From the IMG/VR virus record IMGVR_UViG_3300017917_003016, positions 64,001-128,000 of that record: a stretch of DNA of 64,000 bases; one strand, 5' to 3'. This DNA comes from a virus. Lineage: Duplodnaviria > Caudoviricetes. This document shows positions 5,729 through 63,528 of the stretch, in pieces; within the stretch, counting starts at the first letter, position 1; each line of letters opens with the position of its first letter. The notes beneath the pieces are model-generated. The model worked only from the letters and a program-made list of their open reading frames with translations, ran no database searches and was not told the DNA's origin. A program made the translations under genes and the position numbers.

Positions 5729-6095
5729 ACCGTTTGCTGGCAATTTCTTTGAGACTCACATAAGGTCCGTGGTGTATGGCCACATCCTTGCTGTTGAATG
5801 TCTTAAGACACACTCTAAACTCAATCCAATCCTGCTTTAAAAACACATTGATAGGCACTAGCCTATTGCTTTCCCACCACCATTGATCGGCTAATTCTAG
5901 ATATTTGGTCTTTTGATCCATGGTCCTCAGAGCAGCATAATCATAGATTGTGGTTATCAGTTCGTCTGAGTTTTGAATAATGCCTATGTAGTCGTTACCG
6001 CCGTAGGTAATGTAACTGATAAAAGGGTATTCATTAAGCAAACGCCTGATATGGTCTTCCATAGGATTTCGATAAATACTTCTATTAGGATCCAA
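5688..6095 (-). CDS. hypothetical phage protein
   Basis: 135-aa ORF; true start may be the internal Met (MEDHIRR). Confidence 0.6.
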   Translation of the reverse strand: MDPNRSIYRNPMEDHIRRLLNEYPFISYITYGGNDYIGIIQNSDELITTIYDYAALRTMDQKTKYLELADQWWWESNRLVPINVFLKQDWIEFRVCLKTFNSKDVAIHHGPYVSLKEIASKRSKRRSITLVRKVS

Positions 6096-47736: not shown

Positions 47737-47970
47737 ATGGGGTATGACAAAATAATCAAAGGCAACACTGTCTACGTTAAAAACGACAATGTAGATCAGG
47801 CTCTGCGCAAGTTTAAAAAACGTGTACAAGACAGTGGTTTACTGCAAGAACTTCGCGACCGCGAGTTTTATGAAAAGCCAACTAGCGTAAGAAAACGCAA
47901 GGTTGGTGCAGCCAAACAGCGTTGGCGCAAGCGTGTAGAGAGCGAGAAACTACCAAAGAAAATGTTCTAA
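47737..47970 (+). CDS. rpsU: ribosomal protein bS21
   Basis: VDQALRKFKKRV..SGLLQELRDREFYEKPTSVRKRK. Confidence 0.92.
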   Translation: MGYDKIIKGNTVYVKNDNVDQALRKFKKRVQDSGLLQELRDREFYEKPTSVRKRKVGAAKQRWRKRVESEKLPKKMF

Positions 47971-49517
47971 GCAAGTATTTTTTTCATCCGATCGGTGATT
48001 AAATTATCTATAGGATAATTGCTGTTAAGAATATTTTTAATAATTACGTTATTTTGATTTTTATCTGCAAGCATGCTGTGATCGTAACCGATAGTCCTTA
48101 GTTCAGGATATTCAATTAGGTCCGCTGGGTAAAAATTATCGAAGTATTCTCGATCATCTTTTTCAACTAATTTGGCTACCTGTTTAAAACTTACCCCTAC
48201 ATTATTGACCCAACCGTCCTCTCCCCAAGTAAGTTGATATTTTTCATAGTCGTTACTCATTGAATTTGTTTTTATAACAATGTGTTTATGTTCGGGAGGG
48301 GTTACCCAAAGTGCACTATATTTGTAACTGTCAACCAATGGTGTAGTTTTTAACCAAGCCATTGTTTCTAAAATACTGTCGTACGGTTCCCATGGTAATC
48401 CGGCTATCATGAGAGCATTAATTAAAACATCCTGTTTCCATACAGATCTTAAGTGTTCAAGTGTTTCTATAATTCTAGATCGCCCAAGCCCTTTTCCAAC
48501 AAATTTGCCTGCTTTGTCATGCAAGGTTTCAATACCAAAACAACCTAATTTACAACCTGATTCCATCAACCATTGTGCACTTTCTGGATTTGACCAGATA
48601 AGGTCTAATCTCAAATAACTAACCCATTCTGGAGTAAAAGGCAATTTACTCCAAACTTCGTCGTAAAGCGTTTTAATCTTATGATCACTATCATTATACA
48701 AGTCGTCTAATAGATGATATTTGGTAACACCAAACAATTCATAATTTCGAATTAGTTCATCTAATAGCGTTTTGGTGTATTTTGTAGTATCAGATTTTCC
48801 TTTATGATCGTAGGTGCAATAAGCACATTTAAACGCACATCCTCGACTTACTTCTAAAGTTAGCCACTCATCTGGAAGGATATGATCGTTGGGAGTATAA
48901 ATTATACTACTCGATTTAAATTCTTTTTCTCCTTCGTATGACTGTGGAACTGTTGTTTTGTTTGATAAGGCGTTGGTAAAATCAACTATAAAATCTTCAG
49001 TATAACCTACTGAAAAGTGTATGAATGGGCTAGACAAATTTAACGCACCTTTTTTAATATGACTTACCCAGGTACCACCTATCATTAAATGAGCATTTGA
49101 TTTTTTAAAAGCATAATCCGCTAAGGCTGTTAATTCGTCTGTGCCCCAAGCCAGTTGCGTAACGGCGGTAGTTATATAGGTTAAGTTAGTTAATACATTA
49201 AGATTTAAAAAATCTTCAGAACTTTCTCGCCAAAGGGTTCGATATTCGTCAATATTATTAGATTTAATAGTTAAAAAGGTAGTGCTAACGCCTATCCACA
49301 ACAGTGTTGAGGCGTGTTGGTCAATGAGATTTTTAATTGCTCTTAACGTCAGACGCAGGCAATTTGGAACAACTAAAACTTCATACCCTTTAGAACGTAA
49401 CACGCTGGCTACTTTATAGGCTCCAGCGGCTCTAGAGTATCTTTCTAATTGTATACTTGTTCCTTGAAGTTCCCTTGTTAGCGGACTTCTGTCTGTAAAA
49501 AGAATTACTTGAGCCAT
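47967..49517 (-). CDS. radical SAM protein with B12-binding-like N-terminal domain
   Basis: LEVSRGCAFKCAYC, LLDDLY, FGIETL, MIAGLP. Confidence 0.8.
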   Translation of the reverse strand: MAQVILFTDRSPLTRELQGTSIQLERYSRAAGAYKVASVLRSKGYEVLVVPNCLRLTLRAIKNLIDQHASTLLWIGVSTTFLTIKSNNIDEYRTLWRESSEDFLNLNVLTNLTYITTAVTQLAWGTDELTALADYAFKKSNAHLMIGGTWVSHIKKGALNLSSPFIHFSVGYTEDFIVDFTNALSNKTTVPQSYEGEKEFKSSSIIYTPNDHILPDEWLTLEVSRGCAFKCAYCTYDHKGKSDTTKYTKTLLDELIRNYELFGVTKYHLLDDLYNDSDHKIKTLYDEVWSKLPFTPEWVSYLRLDLIWSNPESAQWLMESGCKLGCFGIETLHDKAGKFVGKGLGRSRIIETLEHLRSVWKQDVLINALMIAGLPWEPYDSILETMAWLKTTPLVDSYKYSALWVTPPEHKHIVIKTNSMSNDYEKYQLTWGEDGWVNNVGVSFKQVAKLVEKDDREYFDNFYPADLIEYPELRTIGYDHSMLADKNQNNVIIKNILNSNYPIDNLITDRMKKILA

Positions 49518-50731: not shown

Positions 50732-52648
50732 ATGTCAAAGATCATTGGTATTGACCTTGGCACCACAAATAGTTGTGTGGCCGTTCTTGAAAACAACAAA
50801 CCCCGCGTAATTGAAAATTCAGAAGGTGCTCGTACTACACCTAGTATCGTTGCCTACGGCGACGAAATCATCGTAGGTGCTAGCGCCAAACGACAAGCAG
50901 TGACCAATCCTAAGAAGACTATCTACGCTGCCAAACGTCTAATTGGTCGTAAGTTTGACGAAAAGGAAGTGCAAAAGGACATTGACCTTATGCCTTACAA
51001 GATTGTCAAGAATGACAACGGCGATGCATGGGTAGAAATTGATGACAAAAAACTAGCACCTCCGCAAATTTCAGCAGAAGTTTTGCGCAAAATGAAGAAG
51101 ACTGCCGAAGACTATCTGGGTCATGAAGTTACACAGGCTGTGATTACTGTGCCAGCCTACTTCAACGATGCACAACGCCAGGCCACTAAAGACGCTGGCA
51201 AGATTGCTGGTCTAGAAGTTTTGCGTATTATCAACGAGCCTACTGCTGCTGCACTGGCCTATGGCTGTGACAAGACCTCTAAGAAGGACCAGCGGGTTGC
51301 AGTATATGACCTAGGTGGTGGTACTTTTGATATTAGTATCATTGAAATTTCTGAAGTAGACGGCGAAAAGCAATTTGAAGTTCTTGCTACCAACGGTGAT
51401 ACATTCTTAGGCGGTGAAGACTTTGACCAACGTCTTATGGACTATCTCATTGACGAATTTAAGAAGGATTCAGGTATCGATCTTGGTAAGGATCCAATTG
51501 CCCTGCAACGTGTCAAATCTGCGGCTGAAAAGGCTAAGATCGAACTATCGGGTCAACAACAGACGGAAGTCAATGAACCCTACATTGCTATGGACTCTAC
51601 AGGGCCCAAGCATCTTAACGTTAAGATTACCCGTGCCAAATTTGAAAGTTTGGTTGCAGATCTTATCAAGCGTTCGATTGAACCCTGTAAAGCAGCCATC
51701 AAGGACAGTGGCGTAAATATCGCAGACATCGACGAAGTCATCCTCGTAGGCGGACAAACTCGCATGCCCAAAGTTCAAGAAGCAGTTAAGGAACTGTTTG
51801 GCAAGGAACCTCGCAAGGATGTCAACCCAGATGAAGCAGTTGCCGCCGGTGCTGCAATCCAAGGTGCTGTGTTGGGAGGAGATAAAACAGACGTACTGTT
51901 GCTGGACGTTACTCCTCTTTCTCTAGGAATTGAGACCATCGGTGGAGTGTTTACTAAATTAATTAGAAAGAATACAACTATTCCTACCAAGGCTACCCAA
52001 GTGTTCAGCACCGCAGACGACAATCAACCTGCAGTTACAGTCTGTATTGCACAGGGCGAACGTGAATTTATCAAAGATAACAAGATTCTTGGCCAGTTCA
52101 ACCTTGAGGGTATTGAACCTGCTCCACGTGGAATTCCTCAAATTGAAATTACTCTAGACATTGATGCCAATGGTATTCTTAAGGTATCGGCCAAAGACAA
52201 GAAGACCGGCAAAGAAAACAAGATTACCATCAAGGCCAACAGCGGTCTGAGTGAGGAAGAAATTGAACGCATGGTTAAGGATGCTGAAGCCAATGCTGAA
52301 GCAGATAAAAAAGCACGTGCACTAGTGGACACTAAAAACAATGCTGAACAGCAGATCTATAGTGTTAAGAAGACATTAGACGAACTTGGCGACAAGATTA
52401 CGTCTGATGAAAAGACCGCTATTGAAACTGCTATCAAAGCCGTTGAAGAAGCAATTAACGGCGATGATATTTCTGGTATTACTGACAAGGTGGAGGAACT
52501 TACCAAAGTTTCTGGTCCGCTATTTGCTGCATACCAGGCTGATGCTGCTGCCAAACAAGCAGAAGTGCAGCCCGGTGAGCCACAAAATTCAGAGAAGGCA
52601 GCGGATGTAGTTGATGCTGAATTCACTGAAGTAAAGAAAGATGCCTAA
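50732..52648 (+). CDS. dnaK: chaperone DnaK (Hsp70)
   Basis: [41 protein letters not shown]. Confidence 0.98.
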
Positions 52649-52664
52649 TGGGTCTTTCATGTTA

Positions 52665-52684
52665 ATCTTGCTTAATTAAGGAGA
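52665..52684 (+). promoter_or_regulatory. ROSE-like RNA thermometer hairpin over hsp20 SD
   Basis: ATCTTGCTTAATTAAGGAGA, 19/20 identical to dnaK leader. Confidence 0.65.
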
Positions 52685-52690
52685 CTAAAA

Positions 52691-53134
52691 ATGAAGCAAC
52701 ACTATGTTACAACTTTTGATATTCCAACAATCAGTCGTTTTGCTGTGGGTTTTGACCGTATGTTTGATGAACTTCAGCGCACCGCTACTACCCTTAATGG
52801 TACCAACTATCCTCCCTACAACATCGTTAGGGTCGATGAAACTCAATATGACATCGAGTTGGCCGTAGCAGGTTTTGAAGAAGATGAATTGGATGTTGAA
52901 GTACAAAATGGTGAACTCAGCATTCGCGGTGAAAGCAAGAGCGAGTCTGCTCGACTGGGAAATTATATCCATCAGGGTATTGCTAGTCGTAATTTTGTAC
53001 GTACATTTGCTCTGGCAGATAATGTAGAAGTCAGGACCGCCACTGTTAAGAATGGAATCCTTACAGTGAAGTTAGAAGTAATTGTGCCTGAGCACGAAAA
53101 GCCAAAAAAGATTGCTATTACTTTTCAAAAGTGA
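52691..53134 (+). CDS. small heat-shock protein (Hsp20, IbpA-like)
   Basis: GFDRMF, NYPPYNI, ELAVAGF, HQGIASRNF, NGILTV. Confidence 0.93.
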   Translation: MKQHYVTTFDIPTISRFAVGFDRMFDELQRTATTLNGTNYPPYNIVRVDETQYDIELAVAGFEEDELDVEVQNGELSIRGESKSESARLGNYIHQGIASRNFVRTFALADNVEVRTATVKNGILTVKLEVIVPEHEKPKKIAITFQK

Positions 53135-53149
53135 TATAATATAAATACT

Positions 53150-53167
53150 GGGGGAGGAAACTCCCCC
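53150..53167 (+). promoter_or_regulatory. GC-rich GAAA-tetraloop hairpin just after late box (5' stabiliser or terminator)
   Basis: GGGGGAG-GAAA-CTCCCCC after TATAAATA 53140. Confidence 0.5.
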
Positions 53168-53188
53168 AACTAATATAATAAGGACGCT

Positions 53189-53497
53189 ATGAGCACAAAA
53201 GTTGTTACCAAAACCAAAGTCTCGCCAAATCTTAATCTACAAGAGCCTCCTCAGTACAAGGTTATATATATCAATGATGATGTTACTACCATGGAGTTTG
53301 TAATTGAATCTTTGATTTCAGTTTTTGATTACACTCTCGATGATGCGGTATTTTTAACTAAGAAAATTCATGATGAAGGTACTGGAGTCGCTGCAATTCT
53401 TCCCTATGAAATGGCCGAACAGAAGGGAGTTGAAGTCACACAACTGGCGCGCAATAATGGATTTCCTTTAAATATTAAGTTGGAGCCGCAGGGATGA
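53189..53497 (+). CDS. clpS: ATP-dependent Clp protease adaptor ClpS
   Basis: PPQYKVIYINDDVTTMEFV, IHDEG, AEQK, FPLNIKLE. Confidence 0.92.
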   Translation: MSTKVVTKTKVSPNLNLQEPPQYKVIYINDDVTTMEFVIESLISVFDYTLDDAVFLTKKIHDEGTGVAAILPYEMAEQKGVEVTQLARNNGFPLNIKLEPQG

Positions 53498-54894: not shown

Positions 54895-55377
54895 ATGAAA
54901 AAAACAATAACCTACCTCGCTCTACTCGCCTCTGCACAGGTTGCTCAGGCGGCAGAGTTGGTACATCAATTTAACAGCCCGGCATTCAGTGGAGCCGGCT
55001 ACAGTGCTCACGTACTTACCGTTAAACAATTAGAAGATCAAGCCAAAGAAAAAAATCACGCTGCAGCCGAAGCCATAAAAGCAAAAGCAGAACAGGAAGC
55101 AGCCAATACTCCCCAGGCACGTTTTATTGCTAATCTAGAATCACGTATCTATAGTCAATTGGCTAAACAATTGACCGATACTATGTTTGGTGAAGGCGCG
55201 ACCTGTACAACCACTGGGGTTATTTGTGGTACTATTGACAACTTAGGTGGCAATAGTATTAGTTGGATGTTGGGTGCCGGCAGCGATGCAGGAAATATAA
55301 TTATAACAATTAGAGACCTTAATAATACTAGTAATATTACAACAATGAAGGTCCCTGCCGGTACGTTTTACTTTTAA
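54895..55377 (+). CDS. csgF: curli assembly protein CsgF-like
   Basis: Signal peptide; ELVHQFNSPAFSG; FIANLESRIYSQLAKQL. Confidence 0.75.
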   Translation: MKKTITYLALLASAQVAQAAELVHQFNSPAFSGAGYSAHVLTVKQLEDQAKEKNHAAAEAIKAKAEQEAANTPQARFIANLESRIYSQLAKQLTDTMFGEGATCTTTGVICGTIDNLGGNSISWMLGAGSDAGNIIITIRDLNNTSNITTMKVPAGTFYF

Positions 55378-55386
55378 GGATGCTAG

Positions 55387-56265
55387 ATGAAAAGATCAAT
55401 ACTTGCGATTGCAGTTCTGACTGCACTAACAGGGTGTGCTAGTTCTAGCGCACTTCGAGAAAAGGCCTTTGGTGAACAGTTTGACCCTCCTACTGTAGAG
55501 CGAGAAACATTTTTTACCAAAGCAGAAAATCAATTAGCGCCGCCGGCTAGTGGACCAATCCCTGTAGCAGTCTATAGTTTTACTGACCGCACTGGACAAC
55601 GTAAAAACATTCCTAACATTGCTAGTTTTTCAACAGCAGTGACACAAGGTGGAGAAGCCTATCTTATCAAGGCTCTTCAGGATGTTGGCAACGGTCGTTG
55701 GTTTACTGTATTAGAACGTGTGGGACTGGACAACCTCATTAAAGAACGTCAGATGATACGCCAAATGCGTGAGCAATATCAGGGACGCGATGCTAAACCA
55801 TTACCGCCAATGGTGTTTGCTGGCATGATTGTAGAAGGAGCAATCACAGGATACGACAGTAATAGTTTAACAGGCGGTAGCGGAGCAAGAATTTTAGGTA
55901 TTGGCGCACAGACACAGTACCAAAGCGATACTGTTACAGTTACCCTTAGAACTATCAGTGTTAATACAGGAGAAGTTTTAACCACTGTTACTGTTACAAA
56001 AACTGTGCTGAGTTATATGGACAAGTTTGGTGTACTTAAATTTGTCAGCGCAGGCGAGCGTGCTATAGAAGCAGAGGCCGGCATGAGCATAAACGAAAGC
56101 ATTAACAAGGCCACTAGTCTAGCGGTCAAAGCAGCAGTAGTAGAAACTATTCGAGAAGGTGTCCGTAAAGGATATTGGGCACACAAGGCAGACAATCAAG
56201 AATCTGCTGTCAAGGTCGTACCTTTGCCTGCAGAACCCGCAGTGCAAAGTGAACAATTAAATTAA
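55387..56265 (+). CDS. csgG: curli secretion channel CsgG-like lipoprotein
   Basis: Lipobox LTGC; VAVYSFTDRTGQRK, STAVTQG, WFTVLERVGLDNLIKERQMIR. Confidence 0.9.
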   Translation: MKRSILAIAVLTALTGCASSSALREKAFGEQFDPPTVERETFFTKAENQLAPPASGPIPVAVYSFTDRTGQRKNIPNIASFSTAVTQGGEAYLIKALQDVGNGRWFTVLERVGLDNLIKERQMIRQMREQYQGRDAKPLPPMVFAGMIVEGAITGYDSNSLTGGSGARILGIGAQTQYQSDTVTVTLRTISVNTGEVLTTVTVTKTVLSYMDKFGVLKFVSAGERAIEAEAGMSINESINKATSLAVKAAVVETIREGVRKGYWAHKADNQESAVKVVPLPAEPAVQSEQLN

Positions 56266-56277
56266 AGGAGCAAGGCA

Positions 56278-57057
56278 ATGAAACTAAAAACTTTAGTTAG
56301 TTTAGTCGCCCTAGTAGTAGCAGGATCGGCATATGCTGCCGGCGAAACCGGTCCAAACCGCGTGTATATTGAACAAATTGGTAACACTAACCTTATAACC
56401 ATTCAGCAGGTTGGTGGCACCAACGACGTTGGCGGTGTTGCAGGCAGTGCTAGTGTTGATGTAACAGGCGTAACAACCTTGACAGTTACAGCACCTAGTA
56501 CCAGTAACTACGCTACTATTAACGGCAGTAGTAACACAGTAACACTGACACAAACTGGTAGCAATAACCAAGCACAGTACAATATCAAAGGTGGTAACAA
56601 TACCTATACCAGCACAATGACTGGTAATAATAATCAAACCAAACTAACTGTGGGTTCTACCAATACCAACGGTTCACAAAATTCAATAACTGAAACTGCA
56701 ACCGGTAGCAGTAATATGTTTATCACTGATGTTGTAGGCAGTAGCAATACTTTGGCAACTACAGTAACTGGTAGTTCAAACCAAATTACTCAGAGTGTTT
56801 TAACTAGCAATGCTGACATTACTAATACTGTTAGTGGTAGCAACAATATTTTTAATATTCAACAACGTGATGCTGCAGGCAGTGCTGGACACAGTCTGAC
56901 CATGGCAACCACAGGTGACTACAATAGCATTACCACTCAGCAGCAAGGTACTAATGACACCACTGTTAATATTTCTACTCAAGGTGATCACAATACCATC
57001 ACAGTTCGTACTAGCAGCACTAGTATATTAAACTCAGCCACAGCCATAGCGAGGTAA
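56278..57057 (+). CDS. secreted curlin-repeat protein
   Basis: Signal peptide; repeated N-x(5)-Q-x-G-x(2)-N (IEQIGNTNLITIQQVG, TQQQGTNDT). Confidence 0.7.
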   Translation: MKLKTLVSLVALVVAGSAYAAGETGPNRVYIEQIGNTNLITIQQVGGTNDVGGVAGSASVDVTGVTTLTVTAPSTSNYATINGSSNTVTLTQTGSNNQAQYNIKGGNNTYTSTMTGNNNQTKLTVGSTNTNGSQNSITETATGSSNMFITDVVGSSNTLATTVTGSSNQITQSVLTSNADITNTVSGSNNIFNIQQRDAAGSAGHSLTMATTGDYNSITTQQQGTNDTTVNISTQGDHNTITVRTSSTSILNSATAIAR

Positions 57058-57060
57058 GCC

Positions 57061-58146
57061 GTGAGGGCTTATCTTGCTGCGGCATTGCTGTTAGCCAGCG
57101 TTGGGGCATGGGCAGGCATAGGTGTAGTCAGTGACACCAAGGGATCTGCCTGTGCAATCGAACGTGCTAAAAAATCATTACCTGGAGACAAAGGTGCAGC
57201 CGTTGAATCAATGGACACCTATGTTACCGGTGGGTGTGTGAGTAACATAACCTTTAATGACGACACTCGGGTTAAAATAACAGAAAACAGTAGACTGCTA
57301 ATCGATGATTTTGTGTTTGATCCCAAAAAGAGCGATGCAGGCAAGTTGGCCTTAAAAGTTTCCATGGGCACGGTTCGGTATGCCAGCGGGCAAATAGCCA
57401 AGAACAATCCACAGCGAGTTGATATTAAAACACCCAGTGCTACTATTGCAGTGCGCGGTACTGATTTTAACATGACTGTTGATGAAACCGGTCAGAGTCT
57501 TGTGATTCTTGTACCTAGTTGTAGAGACAAAGACAAGGTCAAAGAGTATGAATTAGAGGAAAATACCTGTAAAGTAGGAAAGATTGAGGTGACCACCCTG
57601 GCGGGAACTGTGAGTCTGGACAAGGCGTTTGAAGCAACATATGTGGTCAATGCCACAGTACCGCCCACACCTCCGGTAGTGCTAAACACAGTAGAAGGTA
57701 AGATTAGTAATCTACTGATTATTTCTGGGCCGCCTGAAATTCAGCGAATGATGAAGGACAACAGTAAGGCCCGCAAAGAGCAAGAAGATTGGGAAGCCGA
57801 ACAGGCCAGACAGATAGCACAACGTATAAAAGAAGGTCAGCACGAAGAGACTCCTAAAGTAGTTTCCTACACATTTGACAATGGAAAAACCGGATGTAAC
57901 CCTTCTACTAGTATTTGTGTGCGTTGGGAAAAACCCGACGGAGAAACCATACAGGATCGAGGCAAGGGTACTGCCTTTCGCTCAAATGCAGATCACTATG
58001 CAGAAGTCAAAACTCTAGGCTATGACAGCAACACTTCTCTAACCATTACTCACGATGACAGTGTAGCCACAGCACAGATTGGCAGCGGTGATTTTGGAGG
58101 CAACGTAGTTAACATCAAACAAACTACCGGAGTTCTAAGAAAATGA
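57061..58146 (+). CDS. secreted FecR-domain protein
   Basis: Signal peptide; ITFNDDTRVKITENSRLLID, GTVRY, IKTPSATIAVRGTDF. Confidence 0.8.
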   Translation: MRAYLAAALLLASVGAWAGIGVVSDTKGSACAIERAKKSLPGDKGAAVESMDTYVTGGCVSNITFNDDTRVKITENSRLLIDDFVFDPKKSDAGKLALKVSMGTVRYASGQIAKNNPQRVDIKTPSATIAVRGTDFNMTVDETGQSLVILVPSCRDKDKVKEYELEENTCKVGKIEVTTLAGTVSLDKAFEATYVVNATVPPTPPVVLNTVEGKISNLLIISGPPEIQRMMKDNSKARKEQEDWEAEQARQIAQRIKEGQHEETPKVVSYTFDNGKTGCNPSTSICVRWEKPDGETIQDRGKGTAFRSNADHYAEVKTLGYDSNTSLTITHDDSVATAQIGSGDFGGNVVNIKQTTGVLRK

Positions 58147-59558
58147 AGTTCGTTATCGGTCTGATATTTTTGTTACTGTCTTCACTAGCACAGGCTCAAG
58201 ACCTCAGTTGGGAATCGGGTACACTCAATGGTTGGACTGTGGGTGGCGGTAGTTCAAGTTCTGTTAAATCATCAGGTTGGAGTTCAAACGGCATAGGTGC
58301 AGCAGTCAGTGGCGGTCTTACTAACTATTCTCCAGGCGGCGGCAAAACCTGGACTATTGCTCCCTATGGTACTTACATGGGTAGCCTGCAGCCAGGCAAC
58401 GGTTCGGTAACATTCGATACTGCTGTGTCAAATCTTGGATTAAGCAGCACAGAAAACACTGCAATAAAAAGTTATCTAAGTTATCAGGCCAGCAACGGCG
58501 GCGGTGGGAACCCTACACCAACTAACGCTACATGGATCAAACAAACTGTGGCACTCACAGCAGGGCAGACCTATACCATTGCATGGAACTATCTATCAAC
58601 AGATTACACTCCTTGGAACGACGGTTCTATGATAACGCTGACTCATACTACCAATGCCAATATCACTCCAACCCTAAATAACAAACAGCAAAGATATGGA
58701 CTATTGGGATTTACCAATCCGGGAACTGGTGAATATGCCACAGGTTCATACGGTAGTACCGGCTGGCAAGTGGCCGTGTTTACAGTGCCAGAAACAGGCA
58801 ACTATGTCTTAGGTTTTGCATCATTTAATCTAGGCGACACTGCACTAAGTCCTATTTTGTTTGTTGATCAATTGCAGGGTGTTACTACACTAAATGGTCA
58901 AAGTTTTGGTCCTGTTGCACCTAATCCTGGCAGCACAGCACCAACTGCACCTTCCGGTGGTGGCAGTTCTTTGTGCTGTGGCGGAAGTTCAGCAAGTTTT
59001 ACCATGGATGCAGACAAAGCAGCCAGTGTCAACGCATTTAAAAATCGTACCACAGCAGACAGTAAGGTCTACGTAGATCAAATTGGCAATGGCAATACTA
59101 TCACTGTTCAGCAAACGGGCACTAAAAATAACTATGCAGAATACAACGGCAATGGTAGTTCTAATACGGTAAACATAACTCAAAGCGGAACTGCAGCCAC
59201 AGAAGCCAACTATACAAGACTAGATATTATTGGCAACAGCAACACTGTCAATCTAACACAGACCAGCACTGGTGGGACTAAAAGTGTATTTGCCAGTATA
59301 AACAATAACAATAATTCAGTAACCATATTACAAAAAGACGCCGGCAGTCATCACCTAGATCTTACCTTAAGCGGTGGTGGCAAAACTGTAGACATCACAC
59401 AACAAGGATCTGCAGCACACATGGCAGACATTACCCTCACAGGCGCAGGTTCACGCAGCCTTACCTTGACTCAGCAGGGCAGTACTCAGCAATTCTACAG
59501 TATTAACAGCAGTTGTGCTTCAAGTTGTCAGGCCATAACCGTCACACAAGGACAATAA
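58143..59558 (+). CDS. secreted protein: carbohydrate-binding-like N domain, Pro/Ser linker, curlin repeats
   Basis: Signal peptide; jelly-roll-like N half; VYVDQIGNGNTITVQQTG repeats at C terminus. Confidence 0.65.
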   Translation: MKFVIGLIFLLLSSLAQAQDLSWESGTLNGWTVGGGSSSSVKSSGWSSNGIGAAVSGGLTNYSPGGGKTWTIAPYGTYMGSLQPGNGSVTFDTAVSNLGLSSTENTAIKSYLSYQASNGGGGNPTPTNATWIKQTVALTAGQTYTIAWNYLSTDYTPWNDGSMITLTHTTNANITPTLNNKQQRYGLLGFTNPGTGEYATGSYGSTGWQVAVFTVPETGNYVLGFASFNLGDTALSPILFVDQLQGVTTLNGQSFGPVAPNPGSTAPTAPSGGGSSLCCGGSSASFTMDADKAASVNAFKNRTTADSKVYVDQIGNGNTITVQQTGTKNNYAEYNGNGSSNTVNITQSGTAATEANYTRLDIIGNSNTVNLTQTSTGGTKSVFASINNNNNSVTILQKDAGSHHLDLTLSGGGKTVDITQQGSAAHMADITLTGAGSRSLTLTQQGSTQQFYSINSSCASSCQAITVTQGQ

Positions 59559-59580
59559 ATATCTAGTGGAGGACCACAAA

Positions 59581-59661
59581 ATGAGTTGGACTAATCACAA
59601 AACGCCCACACCAAAAGTACCACCAAGCCAATCAAAACCACCGCACCAGCCTAATCGTTGA
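59581..59661 (+). CDS. 26-aa Pro-rich peptide MSWTNHKTPTPKVPPSQSKPPHQPNR
   Basis: GGAGGA SD, late box 59555, terminator at end; absent from ORF track. Confidence 0.5.
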   Translation: MSWTNHKTPTPKVPPSQSKPPHQPNR

Positions 59662-59673
59662 TTAGGCTTTTTT
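59648..59673 (+). terminator. intrinsic terminator
   Basis: AGCCTAATC-GTT-GATTAGGCT then T run. Confidence 0.8.
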
Positions 59674-59796
59674 AATGGTTTTACGCATGGTTTTTAGGGG
59701 TTTTAGGCCATATACTGTGTATAAGTAATTGTGTAACAGTATTCATTGTTATACGGTTACGAGACAACTTTAGTTTTTTATAAAGGAGAAATAAAC

Positions 59797-59868
59797 ATGT
59801 GGACCAAACCCGCTGCTCAAGACAAGCGTTTCGGTTTTGAAGTAACCATGTATATTGCTGCTCGCTAA
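59797..59868 (+). CDS. pqqA: PQQ precursor peptide PqqA (MWTKPAAQDKRFGFEVTMYIAAR)
   Basis: W-x-K-P...R-F-G-F-E-V-T-M-Y with ExxxY core; AAGGAG SD; own terminator; absent from ORF track. Confidence 0.92.
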   Translation: MWTKPAAQDKRFGFEVTMYIAAR

Positions 59869-59885
59869 TCGAGTAACAAGTACTG

Positions 59886-59912
59886 AAAAGCCCGCCTAGT
59901 GCGGGCTTTTTT
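59886..59912 (+). terminator. intrinsic terminator after pqqA
   Basis: AAAAGCCCGC-CTAGT-GCGGGCTTTTTT. Confidence 0.88.
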
Positions 59913-59955
59913 ATTGATATTTTATCAAATAAATATTATTGAATTTCAATAACAC

Positions 59956-60852
59956 ATGACTCGATATTCTTCCTATCATGAATTTGATCAAGATACAAAA
60001 AACTTACCAAGAATAAGTTATCTTGAGACCATGCTGACCTATGCTTGCACACTGAGTTGTCGCAGTTGTACAAACTACAGCGACTACGGTATGAAAGGTG
60101 GGCATGTCAAATGGTCTACAGCGAAACCGTGGTTAGATGCATGGTTTGATCGTATACGAGTGGACTGCTTTGGTTTTATTGGTGGCGAACCTCTAATGAA
60201 TCCAGAATTAGAAACATGGATTAGAGAATTTCGTAAAAACTATCCATTTACTACAATTATGATTGTAACCAATGCTCAACTGTTTACAAAAAATCTTTGG
60301 ATACTAGATGTTATGGAAGAACTAGGTATGATTTACCTTAAGTTCACTAATCACATTCCCAAAGCCAAATATTTTACCAAAGCGGTGGATACAGTATTAT
60401 CTAGATTTCCGTGGGAATATAAACCCGAGTGGGAAAGGTATTTTTATCAAGAAAAAATTCTAGACTTTCTTGTTAGTGAATCACCAACTTTTATGAAAAC
60501 CTATCGGGGTGAGTATGGTTCAATGAAACCCTACAACAACGATCCACAACAGGCATTTAAGATTTGTAATCAACAAATTTGTCCTCTTCTTTATAACGGT
60601 CGCCTCTACAAGTGTAGCAGCCTAGGTATGCTATCGAGAGTTTTACAAGACCACGGCCAAGTTGACGATCCTGACTGGCAACCGTTTGTGCAAAATCAAG
60701 GATTGGATTTAAGTTGTTCTGATGAAGAATTGCGAGCATGGGCTGATAATTTTGGTAAGCCTATTAAAGAATGTAGGATGTGCCCAACAGAGAAAGATAA
60801 ACCTTTTCATTCTCACTATGACACAGTTGTTAATAGAATTAACATTTTTTAA
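59956..60852 (+). CDS. radical SAM protein with C-terminal auxiliary Cys motifs
   Basis: CTLSCRSC, GGEPL, VTNA, C-x4-C...YKC...CRMC. Confidence 0.85.
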   Translation: MTRYSSYHEFDQDTKNLPRISYLETMLTYACTLSCRSCTNYSDYGMKGGHVKWSTAKPWLDAWFDRIRVDCFGFIGGEPLMNPELETWIREFRKNYPFTTIMIVTNAQLFTKNLWILDVMEELGMIYLKFTNHIPKAKYFTKAVDTVLSRFPWEYKPEWERYFYQEKILDFLVSESPTFMKTYRGEYGSMKPYNNDPQQAFKICNQQICPLLYNGRLYKCSSLGMLSRVLQDHGQVDDPDWQPFVQNQGLDLSCSDEELRAWADNFGKPIKECRMCPTEKDKPFHSHYDTVVNRINIF

Positions 60853-60899
60853 TAGAAATCACATGTGATTTTTTGGACAAGTATAAATAAAATGTATGG

Positions 60900-60928
60900 T
60901 TGATACAAGTCAACGTAAGTATTACAAT
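60900..60928 (+). promoter_or_regulatory. sigma70-like promoter of leader ORF (late box TATAAATA at 60882)
   Basis: TTGATA-17-TACAAT. Confidence 0.6.
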
Positions 60929-60943
60929 AGGCGTTATACAAAG

Positions 60944-61069
60944 ATGAACACAAATCTTAACCTAAGACCAACACAGCCCAAAACACTAACCAGTGTTGTA
61001 GCATCCTATTGGTCACAGTTTGAGAGTCTAAATTGCGATCGCAGCATTGGCGGGGGGGTTCTAGGTTAA
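60944..61069 (+). CDS. putative attenuator leader peptide (41 aa)
   Basis: MNTNLNLRPTQPKTLTSVVASYWSQFESLNCDRSIGGGVLG; last codons form the 5' strand of an antiterminator. Confidence 0.55.
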   Translation: MNTNLNLRPTQPKTLTSVVASYWSQFESLNCDRSIGGGVLG

Positions 61070-61101
61070 CGGTATAGCAGCACATGCACACTAACTTAGG
61101 A

Positions 61102-61128
61102 CCCTGGACAGAAAATCCAGGGTTTTTT
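61102..61128 (+). terminator. attenuator-type intrinsic terminator
   Basis: CCCTGGA-CAGAAAA-TCCAGGG-TTTTTT; 5' arm overlaps alternative 12-bp helix 61056-67/61093-104. Confidence 0.8.
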
Positions 61129-61151
61129 GTTTTGTGCAGTAGAAAAAGAGG

Positions 61152-61180
61152 TTGACACTGGCGCAGATTAGTACTATACT
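61152..61180 (+). promoter_or_regulatory. sigma70 promoter of ncRNA/tRNA cluster
   Basis: TTGACA-17-TATACT. Confidence 0.8.
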
Positions 61181-61202
61181 GTGCAACATGTTAACTAAAC
61201 AT

Positions 61203-61957
61203 GCGGTTGTAAGGTGTGGTGGGTAACGAGGACCCAGACAGCACTCTAAACATTGTCAAACGGGCGGAGGCTGGGAGTCACAACAAACAGTCAGGGTACA
61301 GACGGTGTACCCACTATACATAAGCACACTGAAGGGCATTACCGCGTGTCTAACACTGCCCGATGAGTTAGACCAGTGTGCTTATGTATAGTGAAATCAG
61401 TTTTGGGGAGGGCACCTCCGTGACGGGAGGTTTTGATCGCCAGTGCAGTTGGGTCCCGGGTTAGTGGACAGAAAGACTGCCCTGCGTCACCAGAGTGCAC
61501 ATCAAGCGCCTCTCCAACCCTTTTATGAGGCTGCAGCCTCATATACGGAAGATGAGTAAACTCGAGTAAAACTCATCAAGGCACAAACAGCGGAGGCGTA
61601 TCGTCCCTCCCATGCTGAACCTGACAGCCTGGAAAGACAGGCACTATAGATAAGTGCTGTCAAGGGTATCGTTACGGGACGCCGTAACTATGCGGGCCTA
61701 ACTGGCGTGGAACAGGTCCTGATATAACCGCTATACGCTGTGGGATGGAAGCACCAGACCCCTAAATTGGCAAGACAGCACTTTTCTATAGTTTTCAAAA
61801 ACTATAAATCTGCACGGTAGCGAAAGGAGTCTAGTCAACTCGCCCACCTGCAAGGGTAGTACATATGCCATCCCTGGCCCTGCTGACCCAGGATAACCCA
61901 GGTGACACCAGAGCCGCTTACATGAGGCTCACGCAGGGTGCAGATCTATAGTTTTTT
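61203..61957 (+). ncRNA. array of unidentified structured RNAs (at least 5 modules)
   Basis: GC-rich, no credible ORF; long closing stems 61312-31/61374-93, 61643-61/61774-92, 61801-15/61938-52; internal hairpins and pseudoknots. Confidence 0.7.
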
Positions 61958-62045
61958 GGAAGTGCGGCTCAGATGGCGGATGGGCACCGGACTGTAAATT
62001 CGGCACACAGAAACGCAGTAGGTTCGAATCCTACCACTTCCACCA
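61958..62045 (+). tRNA. tRNA-Tyr(GTA)
   Basis: GGAAGTG/CACTTCC acceptor, CCGGA-CTGTAAA-TTCGG, long variable arm, encoded CCA. Confidence 0.9.
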
Positions 62046-62048
62046 TTC

Positions 62049-62200
62049 AATGACGACCGGCTAAATCTGCGGAGTGCAGGCCCAGGTTGGGGGTGATACG
62101 CCACTCAAGTTCCAACCCGTCATTTATCAAAAAGGGAGAGCGTTGAGCATGAAACCATGCCTGCTCTTAAACGACAATGACTGCGTCCCTAGAGATTCCC
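62049..62200 (+). ncRNA. two unidentified structured elements between tRNA-Tyr and tRNA-Glu
   Basis: AATGACG/CGTCATT and GGTTGG/CCAACC stems; AGAGC/GCTCT with GCATG-AAAC-CATGC hairpin. Confidence 0.5.
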
Positions 62201-62278
62201 GTCCCTATAGATTACGATTGGTTAGATCATCACCCTTTCAAGGTGAAGAACCGGGATCGTCGCCCGGTAGGGACGCCA
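62201..62278 (+). tRNA. tRNA-Glu(TTC)
   Basis: GTCCCTA/TAGGGAC, TCACC-CTTTCAA-GGTGA, CCA. Confidence 0.9.
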
Positions 62279-62284
62279 GTTTTA

Positions 62285-62373
62285 GGAGAGTTGCCAGAGT
62301 GGTAATGGAGCGGATTGCTAATCCGTCGTTTGCGAAAGCAGGCGCATTGGTTCGAATCCAATACTCTCCGCCA
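62285..62373 (+). tRNA. tRNA-Ser(GCT)
   Basis: GGAGAGT/ACTCTCC, long variable arm, TTCGAAT, CCA. Confidence 0.93.
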
Positions 62374-62378
62374 AGTAT

Positions 62379-62455
62379 GGTCTGTTAGAATAGTGGCCTA
62401 ATTCGCCTGCCTGTCACGCAGGAGATCAGGGGTTCAAATCCCCTACAGACCGCCA
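62379..62455 (+). tRNA. tRNA-Asp(GTC)
   Basis: GGTCTGT/ACAGACC, CCTGC-CTGTCAC-GCAGG, CCA. Confidence 0.93.
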
Positions 62456-62457
62456 TT

Positions 62458-62532
62458 TGCCGCGTAGCTCAGAGGAAGAGCAATCGGTTGATAACCGATA
62501 GGTCGACATTTCAAAACTGTCCGTGGCAACCA
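62458..62532 (+). tRNA. tRNA-Ile(GAT)
   Basis: TGCCGCG/CGTGGCA, ATCGG-TTGATAA-CCGAT, atypical T arm, CCA. Confidence 0.85.
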
Positions 62533-62537
62533 ATTAT

Positions 62538-62611
62538 TGGGGTATGGTGAAATGGTATCACACAGGATTTTGATTCCCGTGTTCTTGGTTCGATTCCAAG
62601 TACCCCTGCCA
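62538..62611 (+). tRNA. tRNA-Gln(TTG)
   Basis: GGGGTA/TACCCC, loop TTTTGAT, TTCGATT, CCA. Confidence 0.88.
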
Positions 62612-62612
62612 A

Positions 62613-62688
62613 GGTAATGTAGCACAGCGGGAAGTGCAGCGTCTTCATATGTCGCAGGTCGTTGGTTCAAATCCAACCATTACCACCA
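62613..62688 (+). tRNA. tRNA with CAT anticodon (elongator Met or Ile2)
   Basis: GGTAATG/CATTACC, loop TTCATAT; lacks initiator GGG/CCC anticodon-stem pairs; CCA. Confidence 0.85.
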
Positions 62689-62692
62689 AAAT

Positions 62693-62769
62693 ACGCCTGT
62701 AGTTCAGCGGAATAGAACACTGGTCTACGAAACCAGAGGTCGGTGGTTTGAATCCACCCAGGTGTGCCA
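62693..62769 (+). tRNA. tRNA-Arg(ACG)
   Basis: ACGCCTG/CAGGTGT, CTGGT-CTACGAA-ACCAG, CCA. Confidence 0.9.
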
Positions 62770-62835
62770 AATTTACTGATCAGTAAATTTACAGTTAAAA
62801 CTAACTGAATTAGTAAAATTATTACTGATCAGTAA
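62769..62835. repeat. two copies of palindrome TTACTGATCAGTAA
   Basis: Perfect 22-bp AAATTTACTGATCAGTAAATTT at 62769-62790; core again at 62822-62835. Confidence 0.9.
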
Positions 62836-62842
62836 ATTTTAT

Positions 62843-62917
62843 GGTGTCTGTAGTGTAGCGGCAACACTCAAGATTGTGGATCTTGCATCATGAGTTCGAA
62901 CCTCATCGGGCACCCCA
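62843..62917 (+). tRNA. tRNA-His(GTG)
   Basis: G-1/C73, GTGTCTG/CGGGCAC, CAAGA-TTGTGGA-TCTTG, CCA. Confidence 0.93.
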
Positions 62918-62918
62918 C

Positions 62919-62947
62919 TTGACAATTGGTCAGTTTACAGTTATAAT
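62919..62947 (+). promoter_or_regulatory. consensus sigma70 promoter
   Basis: TTGACA-17-TATAAT. Confidence 0.88.
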
Positions 62948-62970
62948 TATGAAAATTTAAAGGAGGCAAC

Positions 62971-63528
62971 ATGCCAGCAACATTTTTGGTCAGCGACACG
63001 CATTTTGGTCACGCTGGCGTCTGCCGATTCCTGCGTGAGGATGGTACTAAACTCAGACCATTTGACACGCCCGAAGACATGGACGAATTCATGATCAAGG
63101 CGTGGAACGACCGTGTTAAGCCTAACGACAAGGTCTACCATCTCGGTGATGTGGTCATTAACCGCAAGTCTCTCAAAACTCTTGCTCGCCTTAACGGTGA
63201 CAAAGTGCTTATCAAGGGTAACCACGATATCTTTGCACTAGAGGATTATACCACCTACTTTAGAGATATTCGCGGTTATCACGTCATGAATGGCATGATC
63301 CTTAGTCATATCCCTGTGCATGCAGACAGTCTTGCACGTTTTGGTACCAACATTCACGGACATCTGCACGCCAATCGTGTCATGAAAGATGGAGTTATTG
63401 ATCCAAGATACCACTGTGTTTGTGTAGAGCACACCGACTATGCTCCTATACTGTTTGAGGATGTAATCAAACGTATTCTAGAAGAAGGCGGCAGTGTGGG
63501 TTTTAGGAACGGCAACGGTCCACTTTAA
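62971..63528 (+). CDS. calcineurin-like phosphoesterase
   Basis: SDTHFGH, YHLGDV, KGNHD, LSHIP, NIHGHLH; AGGAGG SD. Confidence 0.9.
   Translation: MPATFLVSDTHFGHAGVCRFLREDGTKLRPFDTPEDMDEFMIKAWNDRVKPNDKVYHLGDVVINRKSLKTLARLNGDKVLIKGNHDIFALEDYTTYFRDIRGYHVMNGMILSHIPVHADSLARFGTNIHGHLHANRVMKDGVIDPRYHCVCVEHTDYAPILFEDVIKRILEEGGSVGFRNGNGPL

Follow-up and report, generated by a model that had tools for sequence, protein, structure and literature searches.

PqqA is the peptide precursor from which bacteria make the cofactor PQQ, and its Glu and Tyr are the residues that are cross-linked and turned into PQQ. One PqqA is consumed per PQQ, while PqqB-E are catalytic. Methylotrophs, among them the abundant OM43 and LD28 clades, depend on this cofactor for the methanol and alcohol dehydrogenases that drive their turnover of carbon. 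Methylophilaceae keep 3-12 copies of pqqA against a single pqqBCDE (PMC4109929), which suggests that precursor dosage matters. Viral pqqA is a kind of gene already reported: PqqA was described in T4-like Methylophilaceae phages of Lake Baikal, which also encode methanol dehydrogenase (Coutinho et al. 2020, Microbiome 8:163; bioRxiv 10.1101/2020.04.02.019802), and pqqA was listed in 2026 among the viral P-cycling genes and AMGs of reservoir sediments (PMC13188868). Here, we analyzed a stretch of 64,000 nucleotides (the window) from a giant uncultured phage. It spans bases 64001-128000 of a linear IMG/VR virus record (201,732 bp; estimated CheckV completeness 56%), and a first-pass annotation had proposed a phage-encoded PqqA in it.

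A stand-alone pqqA gene and its signals

The window gene encodes a 23-residue peptide (Table 1), PqqA being a short peptide of about 20-40 residues. The HMM search suggested as a check with the first-pass annotation gave 35.4 bits with PF08042 (Pfam PqqA; cut-off 21.1) and 34.1 bits with the equivalog model TIGR02107 (cut-off 20), and the PqqA consensus it had claimed is present. Direct reading of the peptide identified E15-V-T-M-Y19 as the Glu-x3-Tyr pair, which is retained together with W2, P5 and R11. The general PqqA format, with a W-x-x-P leader and an Arg ahead of the core, is likewise kept, with the exception of a Lys at position 10. We conclude that this is very probably a real, translated gene.

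Both the strong Shine-Dalgarno sequence and the terminator described previously were found, and the proposed span of the unit (59720-59912) rightly includes the leader and terminator of pqqA. The leader hairpin, given earlier as GTAAC...GTTAC, is real, although that sequence covers only part of its 16-pair arms. It is present in both the MFE and the centroid fold (z = -3.4 for the 216-nt unit), lies immediately 3' of a TATAAG(T) box and, judged from sequence and folding, could possibly serve as a 5' stabilizer or processing site. On the related metagenome contig L126 a hairpin occurs at the same location but is a different one. The terminator ahead of the gene sets pqqA apart from the upstream curli-type operon. 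The description of the gene as monocistronic is based on the terminators on either side, the interval from the upstream one to pqqA having yielded no sigma-70-like promoter. A T4-type late box (TATAAATA) was also absent upstream of pqqA, and the window as a whole contained 8 matches to it against 5.5 expected (no enrichment). Around the gene, G+C falls to about 0.37-0.40.

Searches of the window and of the entire 201,732-bp record returned a single PqqA match and no pqqB, C, D or E, extending the earlier statement that the window holds no pqqB-E; nor was a methanol/ethanol-type PQQ dehydrogenase found in either. Applied to Ca. Methylopumilus universalis as a positive control, the searches for PqqC and PqqE scored 331 and 517 bits, respectively. 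As the record is about 56% complete, pqqB-E or a dehydrogenase could sit in the missing part. The lack of linkage between pqqA and pqqBCDE on the 201.7-kb record does not disqualify the gene, because Ca. Methylopumilus and other Methylophilaceae also keep orphan or extra pqqA copies.

The gene content of the window includes helicases, primase, ribonucleotide reductase, DnaK, Hsp20, ClpS, CsgF and CsgG. The closest relatives of its DnaB-like helicase are in jumbo phages such as PA5oct and Atu_ph07 (about 50% identity); those of its CsgG are in pelagiphage HTVC008M and the Methylophilales phage Melnitz (42-44%). Viral genes thus lie on both sides of pqqA (replication, ribonucleotide reductase and chaperone genes, CsgG and a tRNA array, all on a virus record), as expected of an AMG and as the term phage-encoded had implied, and these phage-typical flanks make a host-insert chimera unlikely.

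Several neighbors were noted in their own right. Within the curli-type module, the 259-aa protein has a weak curlin repeat and the 471-aa protein has curlin repeats scoring 26 bits, above the cut-off. The paper on Melnitz described phage curli modules without fiber subunits (csgA/B); the window phage may carry candidate curli fiber subunits. The 26-codon ORF downstream of the module (MSWTNHKTPTPKVPPSQSKPPHQPNR) begins M-S-W-T as PqqA does but is without the Glu/Tyr core, and no relatives were found in the retrieved loci. A cytidylyltransferase follows the DnaK/Hsp20/ClpS set and is common to several phage contigs carrying the Lys-10 form of pqqA. In the ORF-poor stretch ahead of the tRNA array, Rfam detected no family at E <= 0.1.

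Table 1. Coordinates of pqqA, its signals and other features of the window, and of pqqA in cultured Methylophilales phages
Feature	Sequence	Position	Strand	Details
Second radical SAM protein	Window	47967-49517	-	516 aa; no PqqE-model match
Chaperone/proteolysis set	Window	50732-53497	+	DnaK (855 bits, Pfam HSP70), Hsp20, ClpS adaptor
Curli-type module	Window	54895-59558	+	CsgF, CsgG, 259-aa protein, FecR-domain protein, 471-aa protein
26-codon ORF	Window	59581-59661	+	MSWTNHKTPTPKVPPSQSKPPHQPNR; GGAGG 7 nt upstream; ends at terminator 59648-59668
Intrinsic terminator of upstream curli-type operon	Window	59648-59675	+	9-pair stem and T-run
TATAAG(T) box	Window	59720-59726
Leader hairpin	Window	59725-59760	+	16 pairs (59725-59740 with 59745-59760), 4-nt loop
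Shine-Dalgarno AAGGAG	Window	59783-59788	+	8 nt upstream of ATG, direct reading
pqqA	Window	59797-59868 including stop	+	23 codons and stop; peptide MWTKPAAQDKRFGFEVTMYIAAR from 59797-59865, stop codon 59866-59868; PF08042 and TIGR02107 matches above cut-offs
Intrinsic terminator of pqqA	Window	59885-59917	+	11-pair stem, 6 G-C pairs, then T-run; also delimited as 59885-59911
Radical SAM enzyme	Window	59956-60852	+	298 aa; CxxxCxxC and five more conserved Cys
ORF-poor stretch	Window	60852-61958		About 1.1 kb; no ORF >67 aa; raised G+C (0.50)
Terminator in ORF-poor stretch	Window	61098-61126
Promoter-like site in ORF-poor stretch	Window	61152-61180		11/12
Nine-tRNA array, tight	Window	61958-62917	+	Tyr, Glu, Ser, Asp, Ile, Gln, Met, Arg, His
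pqqA of Melnitz	MZ577097	76140-76205		Extracted locus L002, about 5996-6070
pqqA of Venkman	MT375522	9977-10045		Extracted locus L328, 2501-2569
pqqA of P19250A	KX815270	28094-28153		Extracted locus L329, 2501-2569
Unannotated pqqA of MEP301/401/402	OP830906, OP830907, MW452941

Recurrence of viral pqqA and its carriers

A degenerate DNA pattern for F-G-F-E-V-T-M-Y was run against IMG/VR and matched at least 120 contigs, with a complete PqqA of 23-25 residues in 120/120 of the contigs listed. Among these, the neighbors of pqqA were YqaJ exonuclease, Sak annealing protein, capsid, terminase and lysin genes, and not pqq operons. The listed contigs yielded 112 genes of 23 codons (100 distinct as DNA), for which pS was 0.52 and pN 0.135 outside the search motif (pN/pS 0.26 for the 100 distinct sequences). 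W2, P5 and R11 were invariant throughout, R11 being written with five different codons; this synonymous freedom alongside fixed residues indicates that selection acts on the peptide and not on the RNA. Of 136 pqqA genes from viruses or metagenomes, 130 have an SD-like motif upstream and 75 a terminator-like site within 90 nt. Judged from these sequences, orphan pqqA is recurrent in phage gene contexts and is under purifying selection.

These patterns bear on two other explanations of the locus. The strong hairpin, short ORF and terminator resemble an attenuator, and weak, sub-threshold Rfam matches to Phe and Trp leaders (E 0.13-0.14) could suggest that the unit works as RNA, either as a leader-peptide attenuator or as a small RNA, with the likeness to PqqA being secondary. 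However, Rfam families detected across 59500-63000 were tRNAs only, with leader, sRNA and permuted-tmRNA matches far below their gathering scores, the peptide is kept while synonymous sites vary freely, and the hairpin sequence is not conserved among relatives, so that an RNA function appears extremely improbable. The permuted-tmRNA candidate (62018-62096; 23.5 bits against a gathering score of 47 bits) was rejected as probable tRNA-like noise. Alternatively, the very short length of pqqA, the absence of a detectable promoter and the local dip in G+C would fit a roleless passenger, that is, a recent scrap of host DNA or an assembly chimera. A host insert or assembly chimera was rejected on the phage-typical flanks together with the recurrence of the gene in other phages; the clear purifying selection, the conserved SD and terminator features and the occurrence of the Lys-10 form on many unrelated phage contigs with little further resemblance to the window also argue against a passenger, which we regard as highly improbable.

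In GenBank phages, the tblastn search also suggested earlier identified a PqqA-like gene in 12 records, 10 of which infect Methylophilales. The cultured Methylophilales carriers are Melnitz (four strains), Venkman, P19250A, MEP301, MEP401 and MEP402 (Table 1). None of these carriers has pqqA annotated in GenBank, in agreement with the first-pass remark that standard callers skip such a gene: in Melnitz a 'hypothetical protein' called on the wrong strand (MelnitzEXVC044M_152) occupies the site, whereas in Venkman and P19250A pqqA sits in an intergenic gap. The gene is also unmentioned in the publications on Melnitz and on MEP401/402. The bacterial genomes in which the FGFEVTMY core turned up belong mostly to methylotrophs (Methylophilaceae, Methylococcaceae and Methylophaga). 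In Ca. Methylopumilus universalis, pqqC and pqqE form a single cluster, and three orphan copies of pqqA lie far from it; each encodes MWTTPAATEMRFGFEVTMYVMNK, the same peptide as that of LD28 phage P19250A and also the one most frequent among viruses. With Methylophilales as the hosts of most GenBank carriers and an FGFEVTMY core characteristic of methylotroph genomes, the evidence points to a PQQ-using host, as the presence of PqqA had been taken to imply, and on this sequence evidence the host of the window phage is most likely a methylotroph.

The Lys-10 subclade and the adjacent radical SAM enzyme

Position 10 of the leader is Lys in the window peptide; it is Met, Leu or Ile in the 100 other viral sequences and in bacterial PqqA. 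A pattern for D-K-R-F-G-F-E-V-T matched 8 IMG/VR and 14 metagenome contigs (loci L330-L351), defining a Lys-10 subclade. All of these peptides read MWTKP-x-A-[QE]-DKRFGFEVTMYIA... and mostly end in Ala-Arg or Ser-Arg, all of the genes have an SD-like motif (mostly AAGGAG), and the exact window peptide was encoded on two of the contigs. Besides pqqA itself (80-92% nucleotide identity), the Lys-10 contigs have little in common with the window. A homologue of T4 RNase H is encoded on one 145.7-kb contig, a sequence match that hints at a T4-like myophage. Neither methanol dehydrogenase nor pqqB-E was found in five other Lys-10 viral records, one of which is 85% complete. As a separate observation, Lys-10 and Arg-11 are written AAG CGT in 16/16 distinct subclade sequences (window 59821-59829) while the neighboring codons vary freely; the search pattern admitted any synonym.

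The Lys-10 variant was found in 0 of 617 bacterial genomes (361 Methylophilaceae, a sample of 251 Methylococcales and 5 other PqqA-bearing genomes), a scan of mostly methylotrophs that covered CGN-coded Arg, so that the variant is best described as not found in those searched rather than as absent. Its occurrence so far on viral and metagenome contigs only, the hydrophobic residue at position 10 in 100/100 other viral sequences and the strong conservation of the subclade (pN/pS 0.12 for 16 distinct sequences) raise the idea that it evolved in phages as a precursor that engages host PqqD/PqqE differently, displacing the host's own peptide, evading host control or blocking the pathway. We consider this unlikely, although if true the Lys-10 form would represent a RiPP precursor redesigned specifically in viruses and not a borrowed host gene. 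Viewed as a phage-adapted manipulator, the subclade could act as a decoy tying up PqqD/PqqE, as a competitor or by escape from host control or proteolysis. However, E15, Y19 and the remaining core and leader are intact, as for a true substrate, most phage PqqA peptides are identical to host ones, which fits plain supply, and a Lys-10 host may exist outside the sampled taxa and Arg codons. A manipulator is thus decidedly unlikely.

The gene for a 298-aa radical SAM enzyme begins 90 nt downstream of pqqA on the same strand; the first-pass annotation had made no reference to it. The enzyme carries CxxxCxxC and further conserved cysteines (C204, C209, C220, C273 and C276), and belongs to a family with 106 protein-database homologues, 149 IMG/VR loci and no assigned substrate. 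On metagenome contig L126, a 63% identical enzyme is encoded with pqqA about 750 bp upstream. This direct adjacency and the cysteine content could point to a two-gene phage RiPP unit, in which the PqqA peptide would be the substrate of the enzyme for PQQ-like or other cross-linking. However, a PqqA-like peptide was found within about 6 kb in 0/80 viral loci of the enzyme family, including those of 64% identity, and the enzyme was missing from all of the at least 120 viral pqqA loci listed, from all Lys-10 loci and from the cultured Methylophilales phages that bear pqqA. The five Lys-10 viral records were also without any PqqE-like match, and in the window the pqqA terminator intervenes before the enzyme gene.

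The enzyme itself bears limited likeness to PqqE. TIGR02109 (PqqE) matched at 17 bits against a cut-off of 381, in the generic cluster-binding N-terminal core only, hhalign to PqqE covered 69 columns, and no full-length PqqE match including a SPASM domain was obtained. Pfam and NCBIfam detected no PqqD-type peptide-recognition domain in the enzyme, and no PqqD is encoded on the record. A predicted structure (pLDDT 94.3) had its best full-length match in the Twitch dehydrogenase SpeY, followed by MoaA and BtrN, three enzymes with small-molecule substrates; PqqE was absent among the 50 structural matches listed. The unconserved adjacency, the core-only match and the SpeY/BtrN-like Twitch fold led us to reject a PqqE-like partner, and a RiPP unit of any kind is very unlikely. 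As modeled, the enzyme is probably an unrelated neighbor acting on a small molecule.

Proposed role and comparison with known systems

Since PqqA is used one-for-one while PqqB-E turn over, a precursor gene alone would be enough to supply the pathway. We therefore favor, as the probable function suggested by the sequences and in line with the first-pass proposal, that the phage replenishes host PqqBCDE with PqqA, the only component that PQQ synthesis uses up stoichiometrically. In the infected cell, the phage peptide of 23 residues would be translated from its own ribosome site and bound by host PqqD, after which host PqqE would cross-link E15 with Y19 and host peptidases, PqqB and PqqC would complete PQQ for periplasmic methanol/alcohol dehydrogenases. 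PQQ synthesis, and hence energy supply, could in this way be maintained once the phage shuts down host transcription.

At 72 nt, and unannotated in the GenBank records checked, pqqA appears to be among the commonest metabolic genes of methylotroph phages, and AMG surveys undercount such very short genes. What is new here is the breadth of orphan viral pqqA, the unannotated copies in cultured phages and the Lys-10 subclade. As cultured phages carry pqqA, the proposal that phages replenish only what a cofactor pathway uses up is directly testable.

A functional analogy is offered by cyanophage psbA, whose product (D1 protein) is a rapidly consumed component of the host energy system and whose role has been shown by experiment. 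In both cases the phage would bring only the consumed component and the host would provide the rest, although protein and pathway are unrelated and the role of pqqA is inferred. The window peptide resembles bacterial PqqA (PF08042, TIGR02107) in its length class, W-x-x-P leader and R-x-G-x-E-V-T-x-Y core, and the orphan pqqA genes of Methylophilaceae in being distant from pqqBCDE. It differs from bacterial PqqA in being phage-encoded, in having Lys-10 in place of Met, Leu or Ile and in its location on a record without pqqB-E. The Lake Baikal phages likewise encode the PqqA precursor, read as an AMG for methanol oxidation; however, they also carry methanol dehydrogenase, in contrast to the window record and the five related viral records, and they are T4-like, whereas the DnaB-like helicase of the window phage is nearest to jumbo phages. 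The cultured Methylophilales phages have small sipho- or podo-like genomes, or in Melnitz a 141-kb myophage genome, compared with the 201.7-kb window record, and their peptides have Met-10 in place of Lys-10, those of Venkman and P19250A matching Methylophilaceae-type peptides. Like the window phage, they carry a stand-alone pqqA of 23-24 codons with an SD; Melnitz PqqA is the closest to the window among the cultured carriers (77% identity), and the Venkman gene is followed directly 3' of its stop by a terminator-like hairpin, as in the window.
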